DNA of 64,000 nucleotides, from positions 2,976,001 through 3,040,000 of the forward strand of contig OZ245838.1 in assembly GCA_965228735.1 (NCBI GenBank). Reading direction: 5' to 3'. The position numbers and the translations under genes are program-made. Shown piece by piece: positions 34,887 to 52,055 of the stretch (within the stretch, counting starts at the first letter, position 1; every line of letters begins with the position of its first letter). The DNA is from Planctomycetota bacterium. Its GTDB lineage: Bacteria; Planctomycetota; UBA1135; UBA2386. Under the pieces are notes generated by a model, which saw nothing but the letters and a program-made list of their open reading frames with translations, was not told the DNA's origin and ran no database searches.

Positions 34887-37544
34887 TCACAGCGCGATGT
34901 CATTGACATCGTCGTAGCGCAACTGCAGCGGGATCCGGTGGACGACCTCGTCGTCGTCGTTCAGCAGCTGCAGTTCGACCGCCGTGTCCGGCACCTGGTA
35001 GACGGGTGAGCCACCCGATCGCACGGCCAGCCGGCGGAACGAGGAGATGACGTCCGGGCGGTGGACCGTGGTCACGATGGCCTGGCCCGCGGCATCCACG
35101 ACCTGCAGCTGCGTCACGCCGGCGGGGAACGTTCCGACGAGGCGGAACTTGCCCTGGCGCGCGACGACGATGCGCCCGTCGGCCCCGGGCGCGGGCACGT
35201 CGTGCGTGCCATCGACGATCCCGGGGCCGGTGAGCCACAGCCGCACCCCGCGCTGCGGACAATCGGTCACGCGCCACCGCCCTGCTGCATCGGTGCTCCC
35301 GGCCCGCGGCAGGGAGATGAACGTCGAGCTCGACGGTCCGCGCTCCGTCGTCGCGGTCACCGCGACCCGCACACCCTCGACCGGCTGGCCGAAACGGTCG
35401 ACGACCATGCCCGACAGCTCCGGCAGGATCGCGTCGACCGGCGCGCGCAGCACGACGTCGGTCGACCCGGCGGCAATCGGACCCGACTCGATCACGAGCA
35501 GCGACGTCGGTTCGACGATACGCAGCGAATACTCGCGCGGCAGGAGCGAGCCGATCTCGAAGGACCCGTCCGCGCCCGTCAACCACTCGCCGCCGCGCTG
35601 CCGCCCGTCGAGCCAGGCCTCGAGCGAACCGGTGAACGTGCCCCACGTCGTGCCGTCGTCGAGATAGACGTTGGCCTTCGCGAGTGGCTCGCCGTCCGGA
35701 CCGAGTGCGCGGCCACGGATCGTGAGCGGCTCGCCGCCGAGCGTCAGTGTCAGGTCCCGCCCGGCCGCGCGGTCGGCGCGCAACCGCGGCGCCAGCCCGT
35801 CCATGACCGCCGGCTGGAAGCCGACGAGGTGCGCCGTCACGGGTCCATCGAACCCGCTGCCGCCGATCTCGAACTCGAACCGCCCGTTCGCGTCGGCGGT
35901 CGCTCCCGTGCTGCCGAAGCGCACGTAGGCCTCGGCCGCGGGTCGACCGTCCGCGTGCCGGACGACGCCGGACACGATGGTGCGCTCGCTCGCCGGCGCG
36001 GCCCGCAGGGTCCAGGTGACGGGCGGCACGACCTCGTCCGCCGGAGTCGACAGCGTCACGTGACCGCGCTTCTGCGCCGTGACCCGCAGCAGCGCGTGGG
36101 CCGGAACCGTCCCGAGGTCGAACGTCCCGTCCGCGCTCGAGCTGTCGCTGAACGATCGATACCCCGACGAGTGCTCGAACCGCTGCGCGATGCCGGGCAG
36201 CGACTCGATGCTGTAGCCGACGCTGACGTACGCATCGTCGATCCCCGCCCCGTGGTCGTCGACGATGCGACCCGCAACGTGAACGGCCGGCCCGACGATC
36301 ATCGTCACCTGGCGGTCGTTCGGCAGCACGCCGTAGCCGTAGAGGATCCAGTCCGTCCCTGCGATGCGCAGATACTCGGCTTCGTCCGTGCCGACGATCT
36401 CGAACTGCCCGCGGCCATCGGTCGCGGCGCGCGGCCGCGTCGCCGTGCCGAGGAGCAACTGCTCGACGAACTCCGCATCGTGGCCGAACTGGCTCGCGAA
36501 ATGACGCCGCGCGGGTTCGATGGTGCGCAGCTGCTGCAGGTGGCCAGGCTCGAGCGTCATCGACATGTTCGGCCAACGCAGCTCGTTGCCGACGAGCTGC
36601 GGCAACTTCGGATCGAAGTGCACGACCTCGATGCCGGGCAGCGGCCGACCATCGACGGTCAGCACCTGACCCGCGAAGCGACCGCCCTCGGTCGGCGCGT
36701 CGACGTCCGTAGTCGATTCCGCAGCGGTCGCGACCGCTTCCCGCGTGGGTCTCGGATCCGCCGCGACGTCGGCGCGTTGGACGTTCGCCGCCGCCGTTGC
36801 CGTGGACCGGCCGGTCGAATCCGGCACGGGCTCGCGCCAGTCGACGCCGATGACTTCGAGACCGAGAACGAGCGCCAGCACGGCGCCCACGAGCGGCAAC
36901 ATCCACTTCATCGTGAGGCTCCCCAGGAGAACGATCATGGGAACGCCAGCACCGGCCGCAGCAGCGGTCGCCTTCGCCGCCCCGCGGGCGGAGAACAGCG
37001 GCAGCAACGCGGCACACCAGGCCTGCCGGTCGCCGAACTCGTCGTCGAGCCGCGCCCGCATGCGCTCGAGCCCGCGCTGGAGCTGCGTGCGCACCGTGTT
37101 CACGGGGCGGTCGAGACGTTCGGCGATCTGCCGCGGCTCGAGGTCGTCGAAGAAGCGGAGCAGCACCACGGTGTGATACGGCTCGTCGAGCTCGAACAGC
37201 TCGTCGACGAGGCGCTTGTGCGCGGCCGCGCGTTGCGCGGCCTCGGCCGGATCGTCGCTCGGGTCGTGCGCGCGAGCGGCCACCGATTCGGCGGCGACCG
37301 TTGCCTCACGACGACGACGACGACCGTCCTGGCGACCAAACCCGCGCGCGGCGTTCTTCGCGACCCGCGCGAGCCAACCCTTGGGATTGGTCAACGCGCG
37401 GGGCGGCCGCGTCATGGCCTCGAGCATCGTCTGCTGCGCGACGTCGTCGGCGCGCGAAGGATCGGCCACGAGGCTGCGCGCGAGCGCGCGGACCCAGTCC
37501 TGGTGGGCGAGCAGAGTGGCGATGGTCGAATCGGTTCCGGTCAT
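34887..37544 (-). CDS. ECF sigma factor fused via TM segment to carboxypeptidase-regulatory-like repeats
   Basis: WVRALARSLVAD..ADDVAQQT..GWLARVAKN (sigma2); LDEPYHTVVLLRFF..IAERL..TVRTQLQRGL (sigma4); TM; G.V.D..G.P..TD..G.F repeats. Confidence 0.88.
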   Translation of the reverse strand: MTGTDSTIATLLAHQDWVRALARSLVADPSRADDVAQQTMLEAMTRPPRALTNPKGWLARVAKNAARGFGRQDGRRRRREATVAAESVAARAHDPSDDPAEAAQRAAAHKRLVDELFELDEPYHTVVLLRFFDDLEPRQIAERLDRPVNTVRTQLQRGLERMRARLDDEFGDRQAWCAALLPLFSARGAAKATAAAAGAGVPMIVLLGSLTMKWMLPLVGAVLALVLGLEVIGVDWREPVPDSTGRSTATAAANVQRADVAADPRPTREAVATAAESTTDVDAPTEGGRFAGQVLTVDGRPLPGIEVVHFDPKLPQLVGNELRWPNMSMTLEPGHLQQLRTIEPARRHFASQFGHDAEFVEQLLLGTATRPRAATDGRGQFEIVGTDEAEYLRIAGTDWILYGYGVLPNDRQVTMIVGPAVHVAGRIVDDHGAGIDDAYVSVGYSIESLPGIAQRFEHSSGYRSFSDSSSADGTFDLGTVPAHALLRVTAQKRGHVTLSTPADEVVPPVTWTLRAAPASERTIVSGVVRHADGRPAAEAYVRFGSTGATADANGRFEFEIGGSGFDGPVTAHLVGFQPAVMDGLAPRLRADRAAGRDLTLTLGGEPLTIRGRALGPDGEPLAKANVYLDDGTTWGTFTGSLEAWLDGRQRGGEWLTGADGSFEIGSLLPREYSLRIVEPTSLLVIESGPIAAGSTDVVLRAPVDAILPELSGMVVDRFGQPVEGVRVAVTATTERGPSSSTFISLPRAGSTDAAGRWRVTDCPQRGVRLWLTGPGIVDGTHDVPAPGADGRIVVARQGKFRLVGTFPAGVTQLQVVDAAGQAIVTTVHRPDVISSFRRLAVRSGGSPVYQVPDTAVELQLLNDDDEVVHRIPLQLRYDDVNDIAL

Positions 37545-37648
37545 GGCGTTCACGACCCCAGTGCCGCGGGGCCGCGAGCGGACTCACGAATACCCCGATT
37601 CTACCCCGACCTCGGCCAGGATCTCGCAAGACCCGACTGACAAGGTGG

Positions 37649-38929
37649 TTACGACCAGGCGTCGAGCAGCCGCCGGCACTCGGCGAGCAGCCAATCGGAC
37701 TCTTCGAACGGCCGCAGGCTGATGTCCTGCCACAGGATGCGCCCCTTCGGATCGACGAGGAACGTGCCGTGCAGCGCTTCGTCCGAGAACTCGTCCCAGC
37801 AGTTCCACTGCTTGAACACCGCGCCCTGCGGGTCGCACAGGACTTCGAAGTGCAGCGGATCGACGCCGTTCTCCTGCGCCGCCTGCCACGCCGCGCGCAC
37901 GGCGTTCTGATCGTCGGTGCCGATCGTCACGACCTCGATCCCGGCGGCGTTGAACTTCGGGGTCTTGGGTTCCAGCTCGACCAGCTGGGCGACGCAGTGC
38001 GCTCAACCAAAGCCGAGGAAGAACACGACGAGCACGGGTTTGCCCGCGTAGTCGGCGAGCTTGCCGCGACCGTTGAGGCCGCGGGGGAGATCGAATGCCG
38101 GGGCCTGCTGCGGCTGCCATTCCAAGCCGTCCTCACTGCCACCCATCAGGACCGTCAGCTTCGACAAGTGGCCGTCCGGGAGCCAAAGCCGTGGGAAGTG
38201 CAGCTGCGGATGCCGCGGCAGCCGCGGCGCCACCCGCGTGTTCAGGTCCAGGCGCGCACTACCGAGGCCGCCCACGGACTCGCTGTAGCCGGGAACCAGG
38301 AACGGCATCGCGGCCATCCGCCGCATGTAGCCGTTGGCCGCCGAGTAGAACGCTTCGAACGTCGCCAGCGATGGTGACGAGTCACCATCGCAGCCCGCCC
38401 TCGTCTTGGGCCCCAATGTTCGAGCCTGCTCGAATCCCGCGAGCCTCGCGGCCAACGAGCCGTCGATCTCGCGCAGCCGCGCAATCAGCGTCTCGGCACG
38501 CTCGACGGGCTCCTTCTGAAAACCCGCATCGACGAGCTCCGGCTGCCGATCGACTCCGAAGTACTCCCGATACGCTGCGACGATGGCCGCTTCGGGCGCC
38601 GGCGCCTTGCCGACGAACTTGTTCGCCTGCCACACGAGCCGCGCCGCGCGGTTGTTGTTCGACCGCAACGACAGCGCGAGCCCGAGATGCGCGATCGCCC
38701 GCTCCGGCTCGCGATGCGCGAGCTCGCGGAACATGCGGGCCGCCTCCCAGCCCCAACCCGCGGCGAGCCGTTCGAGGCCCGCGTCGAGCAGTTCGGTGCT
38801 CGACAATGCCGGATCCGGCCGGCGCCACGGCAGGTCCCGCGCCAGATCCTGCGCTCGCAACGGTGCTACCGCGCACGTCACGAGCAGCACGACCGTCGCG
38901 ACGGCGCGGAAACGAACTTCGGTTCGCAT
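37649..38929 (-). CDS. Putative selenoprotein: signal peptide + TPR-like region + AhpC/TSA redoxin with UxxC (UGA read-through at 38005-38003)
   Basis: APAFDLP..LADYAGKPVLVVFFLGFG-TGA-AHCVAQL..GIEVVTIGTD..LCDP..HGTFLVDPKGRILWQD in one frame; joins track ORFs 38003..38929 and 37649..37930. Confidence 0.85.
37972..37988 (-). promoter_or_regulatory. Candidate bacterial SECIS hairpin
   Basis: Minus strand CCAGCT-GGTCG-AGCTGG, 6-bp perfect stem from +15 after the UGA, loop starting GG at +21. Confidence 0.65.
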
Positions 38930-39209
38930 GCGGAAAGCTTAGCCTCGGCGGCGCTTCCGACCACCGGCGCCGCCGTCACGATCGCGTCCCGAAACCTTAC
39001 CGTGGCACGCCGCTATAGTCGGGCGCACTTGCCGGCACTCGCGCCGGCCAACCTCGTCCCTTCTCGCCCCATCGTGCCGGACCGCCCTCCGAGGCGGCGC
39101 GCGGCCACTTTTCTCAGAATCCGACAACTTCGCGAACCGGTCCCGACACCGATGTTCCGAAGCGGCCCCCTCGAAGGCCACTCGCCCCCGATTCTCCCGA
39201 TATCTACCG

Positions 39210-40931
39210 ATGCGGATACCCCTATCTCTCGCCGGCCTTCTCCTGGCCAGCTCTCCCGCGCTCGCGCAGACGCTCGTCCTGCTCGGGGCGCAATCGCCCG
39301 GCGCCGAGCCCAACCACGACGACCCGTACGTGCTCGTCCAATCGCGACCGTGGTCGTCGCCATCGTTTCCGGCAGGGCTCGTCGGCGATCTGCGAACGGT
39401 CAGGTTCACGGGCCACGTCGTGCCCGACGTCATCACGATCATGAACCAGCGCGTCGTGCTGTGCGACGCCCCGGGCATTCACGACACGTGCGGCTGGCTG
39501 ACGCCCACCGGGCAGGACCCGGTCTACGCGGTGGCCGCGCTGCCCGGCCACGGCGTCGCCGGCGGTGATCACCCGACACTCGACGCCATCCTGACCGCGA
39601 CGAGCAATGGCCTCGTCCGCCTTCGGATGGGAAGCGCCGCCGTGGTCTCCGCACCAGTCGCCGACGCGACCTGGAACGACGTGCGCATGCTCGCCACCCA
39701 CCCGGATGACGCCACCGTCGTGTACGGCGTGACTTCGTCGGGCGCGGGCCGGATCGGGACGTACGACTCGATCACCGACGACTTCGTGTCGACCTCGCCC
39801 GCCGCTTTCGATCACTCGACGAGCACGGTCATCGACATCGAGTGCGTGAACTGGGACAACGACAGCAACGGCGAGAGCGAGGTCGCGGTCCTCACGGTCG
39901 ACGGTCTCTTCGTGCACGATCGCCTCGGGGCCGTCGTCGCGTCGTTCCCGTTCGTGACGACGATGGCCGCCGACATCGCCCGATTGCACTCGGGCGCCAA
40001 CGCGGTGGACGATCCCGGCACGCCGTCGATCACCGAAGTTCCCGAGAGCATCGCCTGCCTGCGGCCGGCCGCCGGTGGCGGCAGCGAGCTCGCGCTCTTC
40101 AGCTCGTTCGAGACCCAGAGCGTGCCGCTGAACGGCGAAAGCTACGTCGGCGTCGTCGCCGGTGACTGGAGCGGTGACGGCAACGAGGAGCTCGTGCTCT
40201 CGACGTCCCAGAACATCTACGTCTCGGTGTTGACGAACCATGCCGCCGGCAGCGGCGCGACCGACTTCTTCTACGGCGCTGCGACCGCGTTCCACGTCGC
40301 CGTTGCAGCAACGGCCAACCGGGCACACAACGGCTCCGCCGGCGTCATGGCCGACTTCGACGCCGATGGCGACCAGGACCTGTTCGCGGCGCTCGCGATC
40401 GAGAATCCGGGCGGCGAGAGCAGCGCGCCAGCGTACTCGCTCGTCGACAGCAAGCTGATCCACGTCGAGCCCAACGCCACACCGCTGTATCCGGTCGACA
40501 TCGCCTACACCGAGGACATTCACCAGATCCACGGCCAGCTGCACTTCGAGTTCGACGCGCCGGGCGGATCGAGCACGCATACGGAGATCGTGCTGTGGCC
40601 GGTGGTCGACGGCCAGATCGACATCACCCATTCGCAGCGGCGTTCCGCGCGCGTGCCCAACGGCCCCCCGGGAACGCGAATGCGGCAGACGATCGACATC
40701 GACCGCAGCTTCCTCGTGATTCACGAAGCGCAGTACGCCTGTATGGTGCGACCGATCAGCATGGCCAACGACAAGGTGACCGACGTCACGATGGCCACGC
40801 TGTTCGTGACCGGTTTCGGCTACCCGAAGGACGGCAACGGCAACCTGACGCCGCCGCCGAGCCCGCCGCCGCCGAGCGAACCCCTGCCGCCAGGCGACGA
40901 TCCCGAAGACCCGCCGTCGAACGGCGGTTAA
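39210..40931 (+). CDS. Secreted FG-GAP/VCBS-like repeat protein with Pro/acidic C-terminal tail
   Basis: Signal peptide; GDWSGDGNEELV, ADFDADGDQDL, NWDNDSNGESEV motifs; tail PPPSPPPPSEPLPPGDDPEDPP. Confidence 0.72.
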   Translation: MRIPLSLAGLLLASSPALAQTLVLLGAQSPGAEPNHDDPYVLVQSRPWSSPSFPAGLVGDLRTVRFTGHVVPDVITIMNQRVVLCDAPGIHDTCGWLTPTGQDPVYAVAALPGHGVAGGDHPTLDAILTATSNGLVRLRMGSAAVVSAPVADATWNDVRMLATHPDDATVVYGVTSSGAGRIGTYDSITDDFVSTSPAAFDHSTSTVIDIECVNWDNDSNGESEVAVLTVDGLFVHDRLGAVVASFPFVTTMAADIARLHSGANAVDDPGTPSITEVPESIACLRPAAGGGSELALFSSFETQSVPLNGESYVGVVAGDWSGDGNEELVLSTSQNIYVSVLTNHAAGSGATDFFYGAATAFHVAVAATANRAHNGSAGVMADFDADGDQDLFAALAIENPGGESSAPAYSLVDSKLIHVEPNATPLYPVDIAYTEDIHQIHGQLHFEFDAPGGSSTHTEIVLWPVVDGQIDITHSQRRSARVPNGPPGTRMRQTIDIDRSFLVIHEAQYACMVRPISMANDKVTDVTMATLFVTGFGYPKDGNGNLTPPPSPPPPSEPLPPGDDPEDPPSNGG

Positions 40932-41042
40932 CCCACCTCGCTCTCGCTTCGCAGGCGGTCGCCCGATGCCGGCCGCCGCAGCACCTCACGGACGATCGCG
41001 TCGCCCTGGCGCGTGAGCCGGAGGAGCGAAACGGGCCGGCGC

Positions 41043-43346
41043 TCAGCGCGGCGCGGCAACGTCCAGTCCCGTGACGCGCATCCCGGCGAAGTAATAGGGC
41101 TCCGCCCGGCCGGGCGCGCGGGCAACGGCACGCCGGGCCTCGAACATCGCCGCGCTGAACGTCTGCCCTTCGCTCCACCGCTGCAGTGCGCCAGCGAGCA
41201 GGTCGCGCGTCGCGCCGACCGACAGATCACCATGCGCGAGCGCCACACAGTCGGCGCCGGCGAGCAGGAACGCGCCGCCCAGATGGTTCACCCCACCGTC
41301 ACCGAGCCGGGACGGGCCCGCTGCTGCGCCGCAGACGCCGAGCATGACGAGCGGTGGCGCTGCAAGACTCTCGACACCATCGGGGAAGACGGGCTCCGCG
41401 CCAGCGAGCAGCACGCCGGCCGGTCGCTCGCGACGATAGTCGTAGACCCCGTGCGAGAACACGCAGAGGGCGCGCGCCGCAGCCGTCTCGCGATCGCGCA
41501 GAGCCGCCGGCGTCGCCCGCGCGCCCCAGAGCGCGCGCACACGATCCGCAGCGAACGGTGCCGTGAACCGCGACCGCCGCGCCGCCGACATGCCGATCGG
41601 TTCGACACCCCAGCGCGCAGCGGTCTCGACGTCGAACTCGGGATCCCCCACGACCGTCAGGTCCTTGCCATGGGCCGGCGCGCCCTTGGCGGCGCGGGCT
41701 TCACGGCGGAGCCGGAGCGCCTGCCCGACGGCGACCGACGGCAGGAAGCGCATCGGTGTCTGCAGGCACCACCAGCCGTCGCTCCACGGCAGCAGCTGGA
41801 ACGTGCGGCTCGACAGCTCCGGGCCGACGAGCACGACCTCGCGCCAGCCCGCGACCCGCTCGCGCACCGCCGGCGGCAGCAGATAACCCGCCACCCGCGT
41901 CGCGATCTCACGCACCGGCACCCCCGACGGGCGGCGGTCGAGACTGTCGCGCAGCGCGTAGGCATCGGGCCAGAACGCCCGCCCGAGCGGCAGCGTGTGA
42001 TGCTCCCCGCCGTTCTCGTCGATCAGGAGCAGCGACGCGGACCACGGGCTGAACACGAACATCAGCAGGCCGCCGCCGCTGGGGACCAGGCTGCGCGCGA
42101 CGTCCAGGCCGACCGGCGCGCCATCCGCGACGAGCCGGCGGGACAGGGTGCCGAGCGCGAACGCCGCCTCCATGTGGCCGAACGCGGCCGCGATCCCGCC
42201 ATCCCCTCCGGCCGTCGCCCGATCGAGCTCGAGCAACGTGCCGAGCAACACCCGCTGGTTGCCGTACTGCAACGCCCCTCCGCCGCCATGGCGCACCGGC
42301 CGCCGCCGCCAGGACTCGAGCCAGTCCCGGGTCGCCCGTTCGAGGTCACGATGCAGGGCGCGCAACTCGGCGCGCGGCCGTGCCGCGGCGAGCGCGGTAC
42401 GCGCGCGCAGGGCCAGGATCTCGGCGTCGGTCCTGGTCGGCTCCGTCGATTCGCCGAACAACTCGTCGAGCATCCGCTCCGCGCGCTCCGGATCGCCGAG
42501 CTCGAGACAGATCTCGACCGCGATGATGCCGGCGCGCAAGGCACTGCCACCGAGCAAGCGGACGCGCAACTTCAACAGGTCGTCTAGCACACTCGAGAGC
42601 GCCACGGCGTCGGCCGCGAGCTGATAGCGCGCGAGCAGCAAGCGATACTCGAGATCGGTGCGCTGCGACTCGTTCAGCCCGGCGAACGCAGAATCGGCGA
42701 GCGCGCCCCGAGCTCGCTTCTGCACGCGATCCGTTCGCCCGAGCGCGAGCTGGACATCGAGCTCGAGCACGAGCACGTAGTAGCGCCACCCCAGATCGTC
42801 CTTCACGAGCTCGGCGAGGGCTTCGAGGTCCCCGAACGCGCGGTCCGGCAGCCCGAGATCGAGATGGCAGCGAATCCGTTCGGTTCGCAGCTGCTGCCAC
42901 ATGTAGCGCGTCAGCGCGCCCCTCGAGCCCGCCTGCACCAGGCCCTCGTCCGCGGCCGCGAGCAGCTCGAGCCCTTCCCATGGTCGTTCTTCGAGCCGAA
43001 CGACGCTCGCCTGGTAGACCCGGGCGAGCGGGTGATACTGCTCGACCGGACTCGCGAGCACCGCCCGACAGCTCGCGCGCGCGACGTCGTAGGGCGCCTT
43101 TCGCAGGTCGGCGTCGATCTTGCCGATATGCGCCCGCACGGCGGCCACGGCCTCGGCCGACGGCTGCTGCGCTTCGGGCCCGACCGATGGTTGCTCGGTC
43201 TCGGCGCTCGCCGATGGCTTCGGCGCGGCCTCGACCGGCTCACCCCGATCGAACGCGCCGAGGATCGCAGCGCCCCAGATGCCCGCGCCGAGGACGACGG
43301 CGGCGGCGAACAGAACGCCGGCTCGGCCCGAAACGGACCGCCTCAG
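41043..43346 (-). CDS. Membrane-anchored helical-repeat + CHAT (caspase/HetF-like) protease
   Basis: N-terminal TM; VVLVGP.L..FQLLP, VVGDP, CVFSHG (His), VMLGVC (Cys), LGGAFLLAGA, ARRAV; start may be CTG 43346 (CTGA overlap) or ATG 43451. Confidence 0.82.
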   Translation of the reverse strand: MRRSVSGRAGVLFAAAVVLGAGIWGAAILGAFDRGEPVEAAPKPSASAETEQPSVGPEAQQPSAEAVAAVRAHIGKIDADLRKAPYDVARASCRAVLASPVEQYHPLARVYQASVVRLEERPWEGLELLAAADEGLVQAGSRGALTRYMWQQLRTERIRCHLDLGLPDRAFGDLEALAELVKDDLGWRYYVLVLELDVQLALGRTDRVQKRARGALADSAFAGLNESQRTDLEYRLLLARYQLAADAVALSSVLDDLLKLRVRLLGGSALRAGIIAVEICLELGDPERAERMLDELFGESTEPTRTDAEILALRARTALAAARPRAELRALHRDLERATRDWLESWRRRPVRHGGGGALQYGNQRVLLGTLLELDRATAGGDGGIAAAFGHMEAAFALGTLSRRLVADGAPVGLDVARSLVPSGGGLLMFVFSPWSASLLLIDENGGEHHTLPLGRAFWPDAYALRDSLDRRPSGVPVREIATRVAGYLLPPAVRERVAGWREVVLVGPELSSRTFQLLPWSDGWWCLQTPMRFLPSVAVGQALRLRREARAAKGAPAHGKDLTVVGDPEFDVETAARWGVEPIGMSAARRSRFTAPFAADRVRALWGARATPAALRDRETAAARALCVFSHGVYDYRRERPAGVLLAGAEPVFPDGVESLAAPPLVMLGVCGAAAGPSRLGDGGVNHLGGAFLLAGADCVALAHGDLSVGATRDLLAGALQRWSEGQTFSAAMFEARRAVARAPGRAEPYYFAGMRVTGLDVAAPR

Positions 43347-44128
43347 AAGAGCGGGTGACTCGCGACGAAGGTCTCGTTCCGGACGAACGCCGTCACCTGC
43401 CAGATCGCCGTCTGCGGCAGGCCGTCCAGTACGGCTTGGGTCAGTCGCCATTCGGTTGCTTGGATCGCGGACTTCTCGAACCGCGGGGTCGCGGTCGTGT
43501 CCGCGCTGGCGAACACGGCGAGAGTGTAGTCCGTCCCGGGTGGAATGCCGCCCCCGGGCAACTCGAGCGTCCACGAGAGGAGCAGCTCGGCACCATCCGC
43601 CTGGACCCGCAGCACGAGTTCTTCGTCACCGAGGGTCTGGTTATCGTCGTTCGTCGGTTGCGCGGGCCCGGAGAAGACGCCGACCGCCCACAGCAGCAGG
43701 ACAGCGGCGGCCGCCGCGCCCGCGAACATGCCGATGCGCGCCGGGCCGCGCCGCAGCGTCGCGGCCGTCGGTTCCTGGGTCCCGGATCCGCGCACCTCGG
43801 GTTCATCCGCACCGCCCGGCAGCGGCCGAACGGCACCGGTGTCGCCGCCACCGAGGGCGAGCTGCCGCAGGGTCCTCGCAACCGTCGACTCCTCGGCCGA
43901 GCTCGTCGCCATGGCCTCGGCCTCGGCGAGCAGTTCGCGCTCGCGTTCGGCATCGGTCGCCAGCTGACCCTGCACGTCCTGCAATTCGGTGAGCGCCGCC
44001 GCGAACGCGGGGTTCTGCGCGGCCGCGGCCGCAACGTCGGGATCGTCACCCGCACGCTCGCCGGTCACGACGGCCGCGAGCAGCTGCTCCTCGCGATCGG
44101 ACAGTGGTGTTCGTGGTGTTCCGGTCAT
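43343..44128 (-). CDS. Putative single-TM anti-sigma factor
   Basis: ATGA-coupled downstream of ECF sigma; helical N-terminus, TM IGMFAGAAAAAVLLLWAVGVF, extracytoplasmic beta domain. Confidence 0.65.
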   Translation of the reverse strand: MTGTPRTPLSDREEQLLAAVVTGERAGDDPDVAAAAAQNPAFAAALTELQDVQGQLATDAERERELLAEAEAMATSSAEESTVARTLRQLALGGGDTGAVRPLPGGADEPEVRGSGTQEPTAATLRRGPARIGMFAGAAAAAVLLLWAVGVFSGPAQPTNDDNQTLGDEELVLRVQADGAELLLSWTLELPGGGIPPGTDYTLAVFASADTTATPRFEKSAIQATEWRLTQAVLDGLPQTAIWQVTAFVRNETFVASHPLF

Positions 44129-44724
44129 TCTCCGTCCTCCTCCCTGGACCGGTAGAAACGGCGCAACGAGTCGAGTCCGCGGTAGTACCGCGATTTGACA
44201 GTGTTCGGAGACAGCAGAAGTTGCGCAGCAATCTCGAGAAAAGTGAGGCCCTGGTAGTGCTTCTTCCGGATGACCTGCGCTTCCCCCGGTGGCAACGCGT
44301 CGATCCCCTGTTGCAGCCGCTCGGAGTCGGCGTCGAACTCCGGCGCGGGCGCGGCCAGCTCGGCGACGTCGTCGAGGGAGACGCCGGTCCGCGACCCGGA
44401 GCCGACGCGGCGCAACGCGTTGCGCATCTGGAAGTCGCAGATGCGGAACACCCACGTCTCGAGCGCGGCATCACCGCGATAGTCCGCGAGCCGGCGCCAG
44501 ACGACGGCGAGCACATCCTGCACGATGTCGTCGAGGATCTCGGGCGCGAGGCTCTGACGACGACGGGCCGCGAGGCACTTCACGAACCGTGGGACGCAGT
44601 GCATCCGCTCGATGAACTGGTCGAGCGCGTCGGGCTGGCGGGCCAGAACATCGGCCACGAGCGCGAGATCCGCCGTGGCCGGTGACCGCTCGCCGTCGCC
44701 CGCCTCAGCTCCGGACGCACCCAT
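44125..44724 (-). CDS. ECF-family RNA polymerase sigma factor
   Basis: DDIVQDVLAVVWRRLADYRG..ETWVFRI (sigma2); LTFLEIAAQL..NTVKSRYYRGL (sigma4). Confidence 0.92.
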   Translation of the reverse strand: MGASGAEAGDGERSPATADLALVADVLARQPDALDQFIERMHCVPRFVKCLAARRRQSLAPEILDDIVQDVLAVVWRRLADYRGDAALETWVFRICDFQMRNALRRVGSGSRTGVSLDDVAELAAPAPEFDADSERLQQGIDALPPGEAQVIRKKHYQGLTFLEIAAQLLLSPNTVKSRYYRGLDSLRRFYRSREEDGE

Positions 44725-44835
44725 GCAGCGACCCGCATTCGGGAAAAAGTGGGCGATCGGGCGAGCGGCGCCGGGCGGCAAACATGGCCACCCAGCATAG
44801 CGCCGCGGTGGCCATGAGGGCCACCGGGTCCCGGA

Positions 44836-46026
44836 CTACTGCTTCATGAACCGCTCGAGGTCGGCCACGTAGTGGTCGTCCTCATGGAGTGCTATGGCCT
44901 TCTTCGCCGCCTTCACCGCCTTCTCGGTCTGGCCGTTGAGGTGCTGGCACCAGGCGACCGTGTTCCAACAATAGGCCTCGTACTTCGCGAGCTTCTCGGC
45001 GTCGTCGCCGCCTTCCGCTTTCTGGTCCGCGACCTTCTTCTGCATCTTCGTGAGCGCGCTCTCGGCGAGCTGCAGCGCGAACTTCTTCTCCTTGCTCGTG
45101 CGCTCGTCGCCGTTCTCGACGATCCAGCGCGCGACGCCATTCGACCAGTCGACGACCTTGTCGTCCGGGCAGGTCTTCCACGCCGAGTGGAACGCGGCGA
45201 ACGCGGCCTGGTCGTCCTCGCGCTTCAGCTCCATGTTGCCGATCTGCACCCAGGCCTCGTGCCTGGCCTCGGCCGGCTTGACGAGTCGAACGTGCGCGTA
45301 GAGCGGCTCGAGGTCCCACTTGCGGATGCGTTCGGCGCGCTGCGCGTCCGTCTCCTGCATCCCGTCGCCATCCTGGCCGTCGCCGTCGCCGTCGCCGCCG
45401 CCGACGATCTCCCGAATGACGTCCTGCATGCGAACGCGCGCGCCGACGACCGTCTTGCCCTTGCTGTCGATCGTCCGGATCGACTCCATGAGTTCGTCGT
45501 GGCGATCGTCGTTGCCGAGCGCCTGGACCTTGCCCGCGAGGGCCCAGCGCGCCTCGATGTCCTCGGTGCTGCCGTCCTCGTGCTGCTCGATCTGCCGCCG
45601 CAGACCGCGCACGGTGCCCTCGCCCCTCCGGATGCGCCGGAGTTCCGCGTCGAAGTCGGCCACGGGGATGAACCCCTGGATCAGATCGTCGGCCTGACCG
45701 TCGGGCGTCAGGAACAGGATCGTCGGCAGCGTCCGAACGCCGTACTTCTCGAACACGTCCTGCACGCCGTCACCGCCGTGCTTGGCGCTGTAGCACACGA
45801 ACTCGCGCATCGCGCCGGCGGCCTCGTCCGTGCTCAGCGTCTCCTGCCAGAGCTTGCCGCAGTAGTCGCTGCCGTCGGCCCAGCAGTAGACCAGGATCGG
45901 GCGGTCGGACGCCGCCGCGCGCTCGGTCGCATCAGCGAGCGAGTAGACCCAGTCGACGGGCCGGGGCGGCGTCAGCGGCAACGCGGCGGCGAGCAGGAGA
46001 ACGGAGACGAACGGAGTCGGGGTCAT
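44836..46026 (-). CDS. Secreted thioredoxin-like (SxxC) + helical/TPR protein, paralog 1
   Basis: Signal peptide; W..SL..A..RA....RPILVYCWADGSDYC; YGVRTLPTILFL cis-Pro loop; C-terminal TPR-like helices. Confidence 0.78.
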   Translation of the reverse strand: MTPTPFVSVLLLAAALPLTPPRPVDWVYSLADATERAAASDRPILVYCWADGSDYCGKLWQETLSTDEAAGAMREFVCYSAKHGGDGVQDVFEKYGVRTLPTILFLTPDGQADDLIQGFIPVADFDAELRRIRRGEGTVRGLRRQIEQHEDGSTEDIEARWALAGKVQALGNDDRHDELMESIRTIDSKGKTVVGARVRMQDVIREIVGGGDGDGDGQDGDGMQETDAQRAERIRKWDLEPLYAHVRLVKPAEARHEAWVQIGNMELKREDDQAAFAAFHSAWKTCPDDKVVDWSNGVARWIVENGDERTSKEKKFALQLAESALTKMQKKVADQKAEGGDDAEKLAKYEAYCWNTVAWCQHLNGQTEKAVKAAKKAIALHEDDHYVADLERFMKQ

Positions 46027-46155: not shown

Positions 46156-48684
46156 TCACAACGTGACCCGACCACCCCCGGCCGGCACCGCCGCGCGCCG
46201 CACGATCGCGCCGTCGCGATAGCCCACGACCTGGACGGCCGTCGCCGGCAGCCGGAACGCCTCCGTCCGACCACCGAGGATCGGCACCCGATCCGTGCGC
46301 TGATTCTCGTTCCCGCGCGGGATGTCCACGACGAGCGCCCGCCCCGCGGCGTCGATGACCGCGACGAGCTCGACCGCGCCCGGCTCGACCACTTCGACGA
46401 CGAGCGTGTGCTCGCGCACCAACTGCACCTCGAGACCGCCTGCGATCGCCGCCTCGAGTTCGATCGTGCGGCCGACGTAGCCCGCGCGGTGCAGGCGCAG
46501 ACGCAGATCGCCGACCGGCACGTCGTAGAGGAAGAACTCGCCGTCCGGCCCGGTCACCATCGCGCCGCGGCGGTAGGACTGCCGGAACACCGGGTGGCCG
46601 GCGGCGCTGACCTCGCAGATCGAGAGGTCGATCGTGACGCCGACGCGCGCGAGCGGCCGACCGAGCTCGTCGACGACGCGGCCCCGGAGGCGTTCGTGCA
46701 CCGCGCTGCCGAGCTGCAACGTGACGTGGTCCGCGCCGGCTGCGATGGTCTGCGGGTCGGAGCGCAGCAACGTCTTCTCCTGCCCGGCGCGCACGACATA
46801 GTCGCGGGCGTCGAGCCCCGTGATCTCGAATGCGCCGTCCGCGCCCGTGATGGCAGGCCGCAGCGGCACGCCCCGGTCGCCGAGCAGGTCCTCGACGAAC
46901 TCCGGATGGCGCGCGTTCGGCGACCGACCGTTCGCCGACCGGGAGCGCTCGCCGATGCGACCGAGCGCGGTCTGGAGGCACGTCCGCTCGGCGAACGAGA
47001 ACGGCGTGGGATCCGTGATCCACACGCAGGCATTCCGCACCGGTCGCCCGCGACCGTCGACGACCTGACCGCGGATCGCGCGCGGCCGGTCACCGAGCTG
47101 CAGAACGAGTTCGCCGCGCTCGCGATCGAGGGCCGCCGACCGCGCGATCGACGCGGGCAGCCGCTCGGGCGCGACCGCGATGACGCGGTCGCCGACCGCC
47201 GTCCTCGGCAACCAGAAGCTGCCGGCGTGATCGGTCCGCGTCACGGCGTCGCCGCACGCCACGCGCACGTCACGCGCAGCCGAACCGTCGTGGTCGAGCA
47301 CGGTGCCGACGATCGCGCCGCGCGGCGCTGGTTCCCTGGACAGAACGACCTCGCACGTGGCCGCGGCCGGCAGCGCGGACCGCTCGATGCCGAAGCCCTC
47401 GCGGCGCACGACGAGCTGCGCGCCGGCGATCGCCGGGATCGCAGCGAGATCGAACCGGCCGTCCGCGCCGGTCGTCACCGCGAACGACTCGGTGCGGGCC
47501 GCCGCCACGCGCGCGCCGAACCGCGCGCGGAGTTCGGCGGGCAGCTCGATCGCCACCTCGGCGAGCGCGAGCGGCCGGTGGTTCATATCGACGATGCGCC
47601 CCGCGAGTCGCCGCCGCGGCGCAACGACGACACAGAGATCCGACCGCACCGCCGCCGTGCCCGCGACGGCTGCCAGGACCGTGACGACGTTCTCCGACAA
47701 CGCCGTCACGAAACCGCTGCCCGACGCCGCGAGCTCGAACGCCCCATCGGTGCCCGTCAACGCGATCTTCGTGCCGCGACCACGATCGCGTTCGGGCTCG
47801 AACCGCAGGACGAGGCCGGGCGCCGGCGCACCGTCGACCGACAACGCCACGCCAGCGAGCGCCCGTTCGGGCATCTTGACCGCGCCCCAGTCGATGCCGG
47901 CGTCCGACTGCACCCCGGCCGGAGTGCGATCCGGCATCGCCGGCGCCGGATCCTCGCCCGCCGTGCCCGCGGCGGCGGTCCGGGTCGGCGGCGGCGGCAC
48001 CGGCGTCGGCTCGGCGCTCCGCCACACACCCGTCGACCACAGCGCCAGCGCCGATACGGCAACGGCAGTCACGGCAGCAGTGACGATCGCGACACCAGCC
48101 ACGCTGCTCGACGGCACCACGCGATCGCCCTCGAGCCCGGGCACCAACGTGACGAGCGGCAACAGCGCCTGCCGTCGTTCCGCCGCGCCGCCGTAGCGAT
48201 CGTCGAGCTGACCGCGGAGCTGCTCGAGCCCGCGCTGCAGCCGGGTCTTCACCGTCGCGATCGGCATGGCCAGGGTGCGCGCGATCACGGTCGGCGACTC
48301 GTCGAGAAAGTAGCGCCGCAGCAGCACGAGGCGGTAGTGCTCCGGCATCCCCATCACGGCGTTGACGACCGCGCGATGGGCGTCGACGCGCTCCACGAGC
48401 TCCGCGCTGCTCGGCTCCTCCTCGGGGCGGATGGCCGCGGCCTCACGGCAGGTGCGGCGCTCGTCGCGACGAACGCGCTCCCACAACACGTTCCGCAGGA
48501 CCCGCGACAGCCAGGCGCGCGGCGAACGGATCTCGACGGGATCCGCCTCGAGTGCCGCCAGCATCGTCTCCTGCGCCAGATCGTCGGCGTCATCGGGATC
48601 GCGCACGAGCTGCGCCGCGAGCGCCCGCACCCAGTTCGTGTGTTCGAGCAGGGTGTCGAGCGCGAGTTCGGGAGAACGGGCCAT
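46156..48684 (-). CDS. Second ECF sigma factor-TM-carboxypeptidase-regulatory-like fusion
   Basis: WVRALAAQLVRD..ADDLAQET..AWLSRVLRN; MPEHYRLVLLRRYF..TVKTRLQRGL; TM; G.V.D..G.P repeats. Confidence 0.88.
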   Translation of the reverse strand: MARSPELALDTLLEHTNWVRALAAQLVRDPDDADDLAQETMLAALEADPVEIRSPRAWLSRVLRNVLWERVRRDERRTCREAAAIRPEEEPSSAELVERVDAHRAVVNAVMGMPEHYRLVLLRRYFLDESPTVIARTLAMPIATVKTRLQRGLEQLRGQLDDRYGGAAERRQALLPLVTLVPGLEGDRVVPSSSVAGVAIVTAAVTAVAVSALALWSTGVWRSAEPTPVPPPPTRTAAAGTAGEDPAPAMPDRTPAGVQSDAGIDWGAVKMPERALAGVALSVDGAPAPGLVLRFEPERDRGRGTKIALTGTDGAFELAASGSGFVTALSENVVTVLAAVAGTAAVRSDLCVVVAPRRRLAGRIVDMNHRPLALAEVAIELPAELRARFGARVAAARTESFAVTTGADGRFDLAAIPAIAGAQLVVRREGFGIERSALPAAATCEVVLSREPAPRGAIVGTVLDHDGSAARDVRVACGDAVTRTDHAGSFWLPRTAVGDRVIAVAPERLPASIARSAALDRERGELVLQLGDRPRAIRGQVVDGRGRPVRNACVWITDPTPFSFAERTCLQTALGRIGERSRSANGRSPNARHPEFVEDLLGDRGVPLRPAITGADGAFEITGLDARDYVVRAGQEKTLLRSDPQTIAAGADHVTLQLGSAVHERLRGRVVDELGRPLARVGVTIDLSICEVSAAGHPVFRQSYRRGAMVTGPDGEFFLYDVPVGDLRLRLHRAGYVGRTIELEAAIAGGLEVQLVREHTLVVEVVEPGAVELVAVIDAAGRALVVDIPRGNENQRTDRVPILGGRTEAFRLPATAVQVVGYRDGAIVRRAAVPAGGGRVTL

Positions 48685-48886
48685 GGGTATCCGGCGGGTC
48701 GCCGCCGCCGCGCCACGGGACTCGCGAACCGGTATTCTTGCAGAACTCGTGAGTCCGTCGCCGCTCCGGCGACGACTCTCCTGGGTGGCGGTTCCCGTCC
48801 CACCCGCCACGAGACCCCTCCGACCACGCTCCGCCAGGTCCTCCCGCATGCCCAACCACGGCCCACGATCTCTCGTATCTTGCTGC

Positions 48887-50053
48887 ATGCAAGGTGTTTA
48901 CGCGATCATTGGCGCGATCGTCCTGGCCGCCCCGGTGACGGCCGGCCAACAGGCACCGGACGCTGACGGGTCCGCCGGCGCCGCGGGCGCGACGATCGAA
49001 TGGCAGAGCGGCGAACTGACCAAGAGCCTCGCCCGCGCCGAACTCGCGGGGCAGCCGCTGCTGCTCTACTTCTGGATGGATGGCAGCCAGCACTGCCAGA
49101 ACCTCTGGGGCCAGACCCTGACCCAGCCCGCGGCGGTGACCGCGCTCCAGCAGTTCGTGTGCCACAGCGCCGACGTCGCGACGCCGGCCGGCAGCAAGCT
49201 CGTGCAACGGTTCGGCATCAAGACGCTGCCGAGTCTGCTCGTCGTCACGGCGAACGGCGCGGTCGATGACGCGATGCTCGGCTTCGTGCCGCTGGCCGCG
49301 TTCTTGAGCGAGGCGCAGCGCATCACGAACGGCACGGGCACCGTCACCGCGCTGCGGGCCGCCGTCGACGCCGCACCCGACGATCTCGACCGCCGCTTCG
49401 CGCTCGGCCAGAAGCTCGAGTTCGTCGGCGACGAGGCGGCCGGCGACGCGATGTTCCAGTCGATTCGCGCGGCCGACCCCGAGGGCCGCACGACACCGGG
49501 CGCCGAACTGCTGTTGTTCGACATCCGCAATCAGATCCTCGACCGCGCGTCGGATCGGAACGACCCGGCGACGTGGGACCTCGCGCCGCTCTACCGTCGA
49601 CTGCGGCAGACGAAGCAACCAACGGTGCTGTGGAAGGGCTGGAGCTTCCTCTCGCGGATCGAAGGCGAACGCGGCGCGCCGCGCGAACAGGTCGCGGCCT
49701 ACGCCGCGGCGTGGCCGCACGCGCCCGCGGTCGAACGCGACGAATGGGGCTCGAACGTCGTCGAGAACCTCTGGAGCCGCCGCGACACGGTGCGCGCCGC
49801 CGGTCGCAAGCTGGCGCGCGAGATCGCGCGCACGCTCGCCGCACACGCGGACGCGCCGGCCGCTGATCCGGCGGGCAACGGCAGAAAGCCGCCCACGGCC
49901 GAGCAACGCGCGTTTTTCCTCGCGTCCGCGGCGCGCGGCATGGCCCTCGGCGGGCGGCGACGGGCCGCCCTCGACCTCGTCGCCAAAGCTCGCGAACTCA
50001 CGCCCGACGACGCGGCCCTCGAACAGCTGCAGCAGCAGATCGAGCGCCGCTGA
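48887..50053 (+). CDS. Secreted thioredoxin-like (SxxC) + helical/TPR protein, paralog 2
   Basis: Signal peptide; QPLLLYFWMDGSQHCQNLW, FGIKTLPSLLV; shares G.GTV..LR, L..K and WDL.PLY blocks with 44836..46026. Confidence 0.78.
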   Translation: MQGVYAIIGAIVLAAPVTAGQQAPDADGSAGAAGATIEWQSGELTKSLARAELAGQPLLLYFWMDGSQHCQNLWGQTLTQPAAVTALQQFVCHSADVATPAGSKLVQRFGIKTLPSLLVVTANGAVDDAMLGFVPLAAFLSEAQRITNGTGTVTALRAAVDAAPDDLDRRFALGQKLEFVGDEAAGDAMFQSIRAADPEGRTTPGAELLLFDIRNQILDRASDRNDPATWDLAPLYRRLRQTKQPTVLWKGWSFLSRIEGERGAPREQVAAYAAAWPHAPAVERDEWGSNVVENLWSRRDTVRAAGRKLAREIARTLAAHADAPAADPAGNGRKPPTAEQRAFFLASAARGMALGGRRRAALDLVAKARELTPDDAALEQLQQQIERR

Positions 50054-51218: not shown

Positions 51219-52055
51219 TCAGTCGCCGCCGCAACCACCGCCGCAACCGCCACCGCCGCCGCAGCCGCTGTCGCCGCCCGCGTCGTCGAATCCGTCCGCA
51301 TCGTCGAAGTCGTGCGTCTTGCGGTCGGTGCCGCCCCCATCGACGAAGAACGCGCCGGCCCGAGCGGTGTCGTCGCCCCGCCCAGCGCGTTCGCGCCGCA
51401 CCTGCTCACGGTCACCGCCGTGCCGAACGGCGCCACGCCAGACCTGCGAAACCATCAACAGCAGGAGGGCGATGAGACCGACGGCGACGGCCGTCGCGAG
51501 CAGGCTGTCGGTCGACGTCGTGTCGCCGGCGCACGCCGCGAAGAGCAGGAACACGGCCATGGTCATGCCGCCGGCGACCACGCCGCGCGACACGACAACA
51601 TGCTGCCCGAGCTCGACTCGGCGATAGCGGGCGTAGAAGCGTTGGTCTGCCGACGGCCAGATGTCACGCGGTGGCGGCGTCCCGAACTCGCGCTCGTAGC
51701 TCGCCAGCGTGTTCTCGTACCACTCCCGATACTTCCGCGACTCCGCCGCGCCGCCCGCCGTCGGACCGTGATGCAGCGGCCGGCCGAGCACTTCCCCGCA
51801 CATCTCGTCCCAGTACGACCGCGTGTAGGTCAGGTGCAGATGCCAGCACTGATCCACCTCGTCGGACGGCGTCACCGGGTGACCGGCCGTCATCGCGAGA
51901 TAGACGAAGCGCTTGTACTCGCGCTCGACGCGCTCGGCGAACGCCAGCGACCAGCCGTTCTCGCGCGCCACGCGCTGCGTGAACGTGAGGGCCGCATCGG
52001 TTGGTCCGATCGAGAAGCGTTCGAGACGAGCGCGGAGCGTGGGCTGCGGGATCAT
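51219..52055 (-). CDS. Glycine-rich-domain (GRDP/DUF1399-like) membrane protein with TIGR04222-like Gly/Cys tail
   Basis: EYKRFVYL..PSDEVDQCWHLHLTYTRSYW, HHGPT, YENTLASY; two TMs; tail GGDSGCGGGGGCGGGCGGD. Confidence 0.8.
   Translation of the reverse strand: MIPQPTLRARLERFSIGPTDAALTFTQRVARENGWSLAFAERVEREYKRFVYLAMTAGHPVTPSDEVDQCWHLHLTYTRSYWDEMCGEVLGRPLHHGPTAGGAAESRKYREWYENTLASYEREFGTPPPRDIWPSADQRFYARYRRVELGQHVVVSRGVVAGGMTMAVFLLFAACAGDTTSTDSLLATAVAVGLIALLLLMVSQVWRGAVRHGGDREQVRRERAGRGDDTARAGAFFVDGGGTDRKTHDFDDADGFDDAGGDSGCGGGGGCGGGCGGD

Follow-up and report, generated by a model that had tools for sequence, protein, structure and literature searches.

A conserved planctomycete cassette of an ECF sigma factor, a predicted transmembrane anti-sigma factor, a TPR-CHAT protease and an FG-GAP gene

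Results

Gene content and conservation of the locus

The analyzed window is a 64,000 nt stretch of the genome of a Planctomycetota bacterium (assembly GCA_965228735.1, contig OZ245838.1, positions 2,976,001 to 3,040,000). A preliminary description of its sequence had proposed, on the minus strand, a three-gene unit encoding an ECF (extracytoplasmic function) sigma factor, a protein with a single transmembrane (TM) segment and a CHAT-domain protein. The three open reading frames (ORFs) are present at the coordinates then given and are real genes, but the unit is larger: a fourth gene, convergent with the others and encoding an FG-GAP protein, lies outside the interval described and had been missed. 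The locus is a conserved four-gene cassette, composed of ECF sigma factor, anti-sigma-like TM protein, TPR-CHAT protease and convergent FG-GAP gene. Its features are reported in Table 1.

Table 1. Features of the cassette (positions are those of the window)
Feature	Position	Strand	Basis or remark
ECF sigma factor, 199 aa, subfamily tied to the cassette	44125..44724	-	PF04542, PF08281, TIGR02937; alignment A1
Predicted class I transmembrane anti-sigma factor, 261 aa	43343..44128	-	ATGA overlap, 3HUG_B profile match, FN3 model
TM helix, about residues 134-152; candidate for RseP cleavage and for a ClpXP degron	43673..43729	-	near-invariant Ala-Ala
Leu166-Gly167 (P1-P1'), bond predicted to be cut by CHAT, closing the disordered outer linker	43628..43633	-	conservation
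Dual-coding overlap, 109 nt	43343..43451	-	likely CHAT start, ATG 43451-43449, shares TG of the conserved Trp227 codon, -1 frame
TPR-CHAT protease, 802 aa from ATG 43451 (767 aa from CTG 43346)	41043..43451	-	PF12770
Catalytic His667 (FSHG)	41451..41453	-	H in 49/49 and 54/54 further homologues
Catalytic Cys707 (LGVC)	41331..41333	-	C in 49/49 and 54/54 further homologues
Convergent FG-GAP protein, 573 aa, signal peptide, Gly/Pro-rich C-terminal tail	39210..40931	+	PF13517, locus conservation
ECF-type promoter-like site: -35 box, 13-nt spacer, -10 box CCGACAC	39123..39149	+	60 nt before the FG-GAP start

Conservation of gene order, proposed at the outset as a check, was evaluated by two locus surveys, and in both the order is maintained far beyond chance. 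In this genome three CHAT loci are found, and all three feature sigma factor, TM protein, CHAT and then a convergent FG-GAP gene with signal peptide. Other genomes gave 137 CHAT matches, 80 of which were added to these three loci to form a CHAT-anchored set of 83: from the same family 70 of 73 were taken, three fragments being omitted, and from other families 10 of 64, chosen by hand. A member of this sigma subfamily is found within 4.5 kb upstream of CHAT in 49 of the 83, some of the remaining loci being cut by contig ends; 43 of these 49 also contain an FG-GAP homologue. CHAT was found in 35 of the 41 genomes searched. For the sigma-anchored set, 128 relatives of the sigma factor were found in GTDB and the best 80 were kept, 12 of which were already in the first set. 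Gene profiles built from the first set were applied to the 62 loci with at least 5.6 kb downstream: the anti-sigma gene is present in 59, CHAT in 58 and the convergent FG-GAP gene in 55.

Of the 80 sigma-anchored relatives, 71 are labelled as Planctomycetota or subgroups and one as Polyangiales; Engelhardtia mirabilis Pla133 (NZ_CP036287.1, locus L163), with a complete genome, is among the carriers of the cassette. Across the phylum, 33 of the 301 genomes have a match to a profile of the middle protein; the weakest of these matches cover only the N-terminal half. Copies number three in this genome and about ten in some relatives. Pairwise identities of the cassette parts correlate (Spearman 0.43-0.65); since linked inheritance explains such correlation, it is not taken as evidence of contact.

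Some variants were seen. Loci L102 and L109 have the FG-GAP gene downstream of CHAT in the same orientation, and not convergent. Relatives also hold longer CHAT proteins (open frames of about 1000-1850 aa) without this sigma factor (L004-L018, L053, L069-L073 and others), in some of which the CHAT domain lies near the N-terminus.

The sigma factor and the predicted anti-sigma factor

The first gene encodes an ECF sigma factor, as had been described: Sigma70_r2 (PF04542), Sigma70_r4_2 (PF08281) and TIGR02937 all score above cut-off, and the protein contains sigma2 and sigma4 only, in about 200 aa, as ECF factors do.

The second gene overlaps the first by the ATGA reported at 44125-44128; in 87 of 111 loci the anti-sigma start is found at the same -3 (ATGA-type) position relative to the sigma gene. 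Its product features a helical N-terminal domain, one hydrophobic segment including an AAA sequence, a disordered linker and a C-terminal FN3 domain. In the predicted model, helices span residues 11-93 and are followed by the TM helix, by a linker (154-166) with predicted local distance difference test (pLDDT) below 50, and by a beta-sandwich similar to FN3 (Z 9.6, root mean square deviation 2.7, 89 residues aligned). No Pfam family fits this protein. The profile of its family matches, over the N-terminal domain, PDB entry 3HUG_B (E 1.4e-4), which we take to be the anti-sigma factor RslA of M. tuberculosis. The single TM segment and the anti-sigma-like character proposed for this protein are thus both borne out: profile match, TM helix and position at +1 of the sigma gene correspond to the layout of class I transmembrane anti-sigma factors, and we infer that it binds the sigma factor. 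It is not of the zinc-binding (ZAS) type: this copy contains no Cys, and a full Hx3Cx2C is found in one of the first 110 homologues collected. CxxC occurs in 26 of these 110 and in 54 of 139 full-length representatives, selected from a library at 50% identity (11 long proteins were kept apart as controls, and 25 of the representatives closely resemble sequences collected before).

The TM helix features two nearly invariant residues, A140 (107/110) and A141 (102/110). This Ala-Ala resembles the VAA/AAA degrons which become exposed through site-2 cleavage (bioRxiv 10.1101/491043), and is a candidate for the same role. A gene for RseP is present in this genome.

Fold and topology of the TPR-CHAT protein

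The assignment of the third gene to the CHAT family was checked by profile search and holds: PF12770 matches with an E-value of 1.2e-21 (77.8 bits, cut-off 24). A hydrophobic anchor (about 46-67) is followed by helical repeats (about 99-441), TPR-like both by profile and in the model, in agreement with the repeats first described, and by the CHAT domain (516-791). The two catalytic motifs originally pointed out, FSHG and LGVC, contain H667 and C707, invariant in 103 of 103 relatives. The model is of high confidence (pLDDT 87.1; pTM, the predicted template modelling score, 0.86), and its best Foldseek match is DdvA (PDB 8ROT, E 5.3e-13), followed by Csx29 and separase; DdvA is also the only match named as CHAT among the 60 sequence matches listed. 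The protein is predicted to be a caspase-fold His-Cys protease.

Among 100 complete CHAT proteins, 62 feature a signal-type end similar to AxA-Q and 56 a C-terminal TM segment, while 21 feature neither. The C-terminal segments are followed by more Arg and Lys residues than precede them (3.4 vs 1.2). In the copy under study the N-terminal hydrophobic stretch lies behind Arg residues. From these features an N-terminally anchored protein is inferred, whose protease part lies on the outer side, as does the linker of the anti-sigma factor. The predicted orientation of CHAT is thus outward and its predicted target a membrane-bound linker, and not a soluble anti-sigma factor of the cytoplasm such as Csx30.

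A conserved Leu-Gly at the end of the linker

The linker is variable, apart from a Leu-Gly at its end. In the first 110 anti-sigma factors the putative P1 column contains Leu in 97 and Met in 8, and the next residue is Gly in 77 and Ser in 16; in the 139 representatives, Leu is found in 126, Met in 7, and then Gly in 121. [LM]G falls within a set window preceding the FN3 Trp in 112 of 135 and in 67 of 101 anti-sigma factors, compared to 10 of 104 repeats of the same type in long tandem-FN3 control proteins: the rarity in free tandem repeats indicates that the FN3 fold itself does not require Leu-Gly. A gasdermin-linked CHAT protease of Runella requires both a P1 Leu and a P1' Gly (bioRxiv 10.1101/2021.06.07.447441), and for DdvA a CHAT cut of the linker following the TM segment is its authors' proposal (PMC11506125).

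We consider it probable, by a modest margin, that with CHAT the cassette supplies a site-1 protease of its own, acting before RseP, and that the released sigma factor transcribes the FG-GAP gene; proteolytic control of the sigma factor had also been proposed in the preliminary description. Conservation of Leu-Gly would suit docking as well as cutting, and the same data bear on a different role, in which TPR-CHAT would act as an RseB-like shield on linker and FN3, with Leu-Gly as docking site or pseudo-substrate, until self-cut or release. The outer domain of DdvA blocks RseP and DdvA dyad mutants still repress, while the overlap of the genes, described below, suggests joint synthesis at a fixed ratio; all this would agree with a shield. 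An invariant dyad, however, implies a substrate, and at a cut site a small residue following Leu would be expected. A shield therefore seems improbable to us.

A probable CHAT start within the anti-sigma gene

The preliminary description had placed a possible CHAT start at a CTGA (43343-43346). This sequence is present, but it is probably not the start: family statistics favor the ATG at 43451, located 109 nt inside the anti-sigma gene, which we regard as the likely start in this copy. No ATG, GTG or TTG is found at the junction here, and a CTG start (43346) may still be used in this one copy, since its hydrophobic stretch begins after the anti-sigma stop.

The CHAT frame is -1 relative to the anti-sigma gene, and is open into it in 94 of 104 loci. 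A start in this frame needs a codon beginning with TG, and conserved Trp codons provide such codons. In 42 loci, the codon before the Trp227 column ends in A in 24 cases, while 5.2 are expected; three other Trp columns show no excess. In the new loci the effect is weaker (20 of 54, 7.2 expected; 12 vs 7.7 for another Trp column), and CTG is found at the Trp227 position in 17 of 46 in-frame cases. When ATGs within 60 codons are pooled, 62 are found inside the open frame, where 20.4 are expected, and 20 outside it, where 23.4 are expected. A canonical start (ATG, GTG or TTG) precedes the hydrophobic segment in all 94 loci, while 4.7 would be expected to have none, and in 58 of the 94 the segment begins at least 5 codons before the anti-sigma stop. 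ATG enrichment within the open frame, presence of canonical starts in all 94 and position of the segment together indicate a dual-coding overlap and 43451 as the likely CHAT start. Long same-strand overlaps have a compositional null (PMC2542354); the expected counts used here are conditioned on amino acid and codon usage, but the loci are related and not independent. Re-initiation by CTG or ATGA at the anti-sigma stop was tried as a rule for the family and rejected: ATG occurs there 7 times, with 6.8 expected, and a ribosome-binding motif in 7% of cases.

The same open frame could be read as a programmed -1 frameshift, generating one DdvA-like chain; alternatively, CHAT would be cytoplasmic and would cut the sigma-binding domain, as Csx29 does with Csx30. 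A ribosome-binding motif is indeed found at 36% of internal CHAT starts, compared to 88% of anti-sigma starts, and in one locus, L043 (G003:C7:157615-169454), CHAT forms a single in-frame chain of 967 aa with the N-terminal domain of the anti-sigma factor. This fusion has lost TM segment and FN3, and looks like an indel, natural or due to assembly error. Against a frameshift or a fusion are the canonical starts upstream of the hydrophobic segment and the confinement of ATG enrichment to the open frame, along with the absence of a conserved slippery run visible in 42 DNA stretches; signal-type ends and positive-inside C-terminal TM segments argue for export, not for a cytoplasmic CHAT. We regard this reading as very improbable, and an internal start of a separate, exported protease as the one to be retained.

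The FG-GAP gene and its promoter-like site

PF13517 matches 32 of 39 members of the FG-GAP family at E <= 0.01, and falls below cut-off in this copy. Near-full-length matches at E <1e-38 are three in this genome, one per cassette, the others being weaker or partial; an Atlas search with the protein returned only FG-GAP look-alikes, below 0.9. The tails contain PP in 73 of 90 members. TPR and FG-GAP parts are both highly divergent, with median identity of about 20%. The stops of the convergent CHAT and FG-GAP genes lie within 60 nt of each other in 75 of 92 loci, and overlap in 22. No terminator between the two genes, and no sigma-70 promoter in 38900-45000, was found in this copy by consensus scan. 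Antisense read-through between them could give negative feedback.

Upstream of FG-GAP genes the family features a motif of the type TGAAAC-N13-CCGAC; the site in this copy scores 12.3 bits (leave-one-out). An unseeded Gibbs search found nothing above shuffled sequences (10.4 vs 9.0-9.4 bits) and the motif was then seeded by eye, so that only the held-out loci provide a fair test. Among these 47, 17 score 10 bits or above, compared to 3.9 in controls (maximum 7), and 8 score 14 bits or above, compared to 0.3. In the training set the motif is found in 19 of 40 loci and in 4-14 in 20 controls. At 14 bits it precedes one of 120 secreted-type genes of this genome, that one being a training gene, and at 10 bits or above it precedes 11 of 49 sigma genes. 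A genome-wide scan, yielding 299 sites of at least 14 bits, revealed no clear wider regulon. These results suggest that the FG-GAP gene is a likely target of the sigma factor.

A subfamily of loci (L020, L021, L025, L028, L030, L031, L033 and L001, from this genome) may be wired differently: CHAT features a signal peptide and, in most cases, also a TM segment at its C-terminus, FG-GAP tails end in LLPW-like words and, by eye, an ECF-type -10 precedes the sigma gene and a sigma-70-like -10 the FG-GAP gene.

Genomic context

No defence context was found: of 113 ORFs flanking 69 loci, some possibly shadow frames and the long ones trimmed to 520 aa, three match PADLOC, no family twice. Apart from one WYL match, no Cas family was detected in these 113 ORFs or in 38 further ORFs of the window, nor was cas1 found in this genome (93% complete). 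A fifth conserved gene is also lacking: the commonest flanking family is limited to 9 of 80 loci, and its position there is not constant.

Several neighbours are reported for completeness. Two more ECF sigma factors, fused to long C-terminal carboxypeptidase-regulatory-like repeats, flank the cassette (34887-37553 and 46156-48888, both minus strand). A thioredoxin-like and TPR protein is encoded directly upstream of the sigma gene (44836-46026, minus strand), with a similar-looking ORF at 48362-50053 (plus strand); it is not a recurring neighbour in flank clustering. The 426-codon frame at 37649-38929 (minus strand) encodes a secreted AhpC/TSA-like protein with an in-frame TGA three residues before a Cys; since the AhpC-TSA Pfam match runs across the TGA, and selA is present in the genome, the product is likely a selenoprotein with a UxxC motif. 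A 278-aa ORF with Gly/Cys-rich tail, at 51219-52055 (minus strand), has no Pfam match at 1e-8.

Discussion

A possible signalling route

The sequence features described above may be arranged into a route. Anti-sigma factor and CHAT would be co-expressed and would come together at the outer surface of the inner membrane, where a protein signal, perceived by the TPR region, would activate CHAT. The protease would then cut the outer linker after Leu166, so that the FN3 cap is shed; RseP would cut within the Ala-rich TM helix and ClpXP would remove the remnant ending in AAA. The sigma factor, once released, would act at the TGAAAC-N13-CCGAC type site, leading to FG-GAP transcription.

As to the signal, one-to-one pairing and the high divergence of both TPR and FG-GAP parts make the FG-GAP protein a speculative candidate ligand: that the protein itself, or its Pro-rich tail, activates CHAT is offered as a guess, with the odds somewhat against it. 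Still less likely in our opinion is the complete private receptor-protease circuit, in which exported FG-GAP protein or tail is the ligand and the Leu-Gly cut drives the production of more FG-GAP protein.

Several observations weigh against the proposed route. CHAT specificities vary (Met, Leu, Arg), so the Leu-Gly of the anti-sigma factor is a resemblance only; it adjoins the first FN3 strand and could be a structural or docking motif. Two anti-sigma factors with no CHAT gene within 7 kb downstream (L093, L124) still have LG or LS. Self-cleavage of DdvA is itself unproven (PMC11506125). The CHAT copy under study has neither a C-terminal TM segment nor a clear AxA-Q, and its orientation is, for this reason, judged from the family and from the Arg residues that precede the anchor. 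In 30 of 47 and 21 of 40 loci the promoter motif is absent or weak; here it reaches only 12.3 bits, and other ECF factors could read it. The related loci are not independent samples. Finally, the FG-GAP tails are about fourfold enriched in [LIV]GG (0.37 vs 0.10 per 50 aa).

This last enrichment suggests a different substrate. CHAT might be a maturation or sorting protease, clipping the Gly/Pro-rich tail of the FG-GAP protein, while a general periplasmic protease opens the anti-sigma factor, the whole forming a regulated export unit. Each cassette contains one FG-GAP gene, with no further near-full-length strong match in the genome; the tails are distinct, with their frequent PP; stop codons of the two genes are close, and both proteins are predicted to be exported. 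The tail, on the other hand, contains no single conserved site ([LM]G is found 0.41 times per 50 aa, compared to 0.44 in the body), the CHAT gene interlocks with the anti-sigma gene and not with the FG-GAP gene, and the Leu-Gly of the anti-sigma factor is left unexplained. We regard cargo processing as rather unlikely in place of anti-sigma cleavage, although the two could coexist. Cleavage of the anti-sigma linker by CHAT is the reading maintained in the following comparisons.

Comparison with known systems

The preliminary description had compared the locus to Csx29/Csx30, as a CRISPR-independent analogue. Independence from CRISPR agrees with the genomic context, but the closest analogue is DdvS/DdvA of Myxococcus xanthus, to which the best structural match belongs. 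The cassette works like a split DdvS/DdvA, without being a member of that system; it shares the logic of Csx29/Csx30 and the CASP-sigma pathway, and lacks the defining traits of both.

As in DdvS/DdvA (PMC11506125; PDB 8ROT/8RW5), an ECF sigma factor is followed by a single-pass anti-sigma factor, and a TPR-CHAT with His-Cys dyad lies, in the cassette by prediction, on the outer side, with a proposed linker cut after the TM segment, and then RseP. DdvA, however, is one chain of 991 aa, while in the cassette anti-sigma factor and protease are separate genes, the former ending in FN3 and, in this copy, having no full Hx3Cx2C: the two ORFs lie here in different frames, 104 loci are split, and the only fusion is L043, with its probable indel. 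The FG-GAP partner gene and the conserved candidate cut site also distinguish the cassette from DdvA, a CHAT protein characterized by absence of the three-helix active-site motif and by dimer formation. A DdvA-type system would control a CBASS (cyclic-oligonucleotide-based antiphage signalling system)/CRISPR island, and no such island was seen in the flanks, which were the scope of this comparison, distant regulon members lying beyond it.

In the type III-E CASP system (PMC10028731) a separate TPR-CHAT protein likewise cleaves an anti-sigma factor, at a hydrophobic P1, relieving an ECF sigma factor; Csx29 entries are the second-ranked structural matches of the cassette CHAT. CASP is cytoplasmic, triggered by RNA through Cas7-11, and its anti-sigma factor is soluble, whereas membrane segments are found in both cassette proteins. 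Craspase is marked by Cas7-11, Csx30 and a CRISPR array in the locus; apart from the WYL match, no Cas family was found among the 38 and 113 ORFs examined, arrays not being searched for.

ECF54 of Actinobacteria (PMC7826278) resembles the cassette in that an ECF sigma factor has a conserved nearby TPR-CHAT and secreted partners, so that ECF-CHAT linkage had already been noted, without an anti-sigma factor. ECF54 is described as having no anti-sigma factor, neighbours encoding a subtilase and a carboxypeptidase-regulatory-domain protein, and a GTATCAG/CTCC promoter, traits which do not apply to the cassette; the cassette has a host among Planctomycetota, an anti-sigma-like gene at +1 and a different motif. 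The gasdermin CHAT of Runella (bioRxiv 10.1101/2021.06.07.447441) also cuts at Leu-Gly, in an exposed loop of a substrate encoded beside it; this substrate forms pores, the outcome is cell death, and no sigma factor is described as taking part. With DegS/RseA/RseP/ClpXP (PMC8103513; bioRxiv 10.1101/491043) the cassette would have in common a single-pass anti-sigma factor, a VAA/AAA degron in the TM segment and the scheme of site-1 and site-2 cleavage; its site-1 enzyme, in contrast, would be a caspase-fold Cys protease dedicated to each cassette, and not a shared PDZ serine protease.

In the literature examined, mostly openly accessible and including part of the ECF survey, no description of the cassette was found, nor any paper joining CHAT domain, FG-GAP and sigma factor; papers treating CHAT together with an ECF sigma factor and an anti-sigma factor concerned DdvA and Csx29. 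ECF groups defined later may bear on novelty. The present analysis adds the conserved Leu-Gly as candidate cut site, the link to a promoter-like motif and the probable CHAT start inside the anti-sigma gene.

Significance

The dual-coding overlap has a practical consequence for annotation: gene callers tend to misplace the start of these CHAT genes, losing the signal peptide. More generally, CHAT as site-1 protease of an ECF pathway has so far been a proposal only, advanced for DdvA and held up there for lack of a signal to apply and since one polypeptide is both enzyme and substrate. In the cassette the two are separate genes, allowing a direct test of the proposed route, with candidates for the bond, the target promoter and the ligand and, in E. 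mirabilis, a named species with a complete genome. If the private circuit were true, the divergent copies would form feedback loops insulated from one another, by which planctomycetes recognize self or neighbours, the dual-coding overlap locking protease and anti-sigma factor together. If the proposed route is true, caspase-fold proteases would serve ordinary envelope signalling, outside defence islands.

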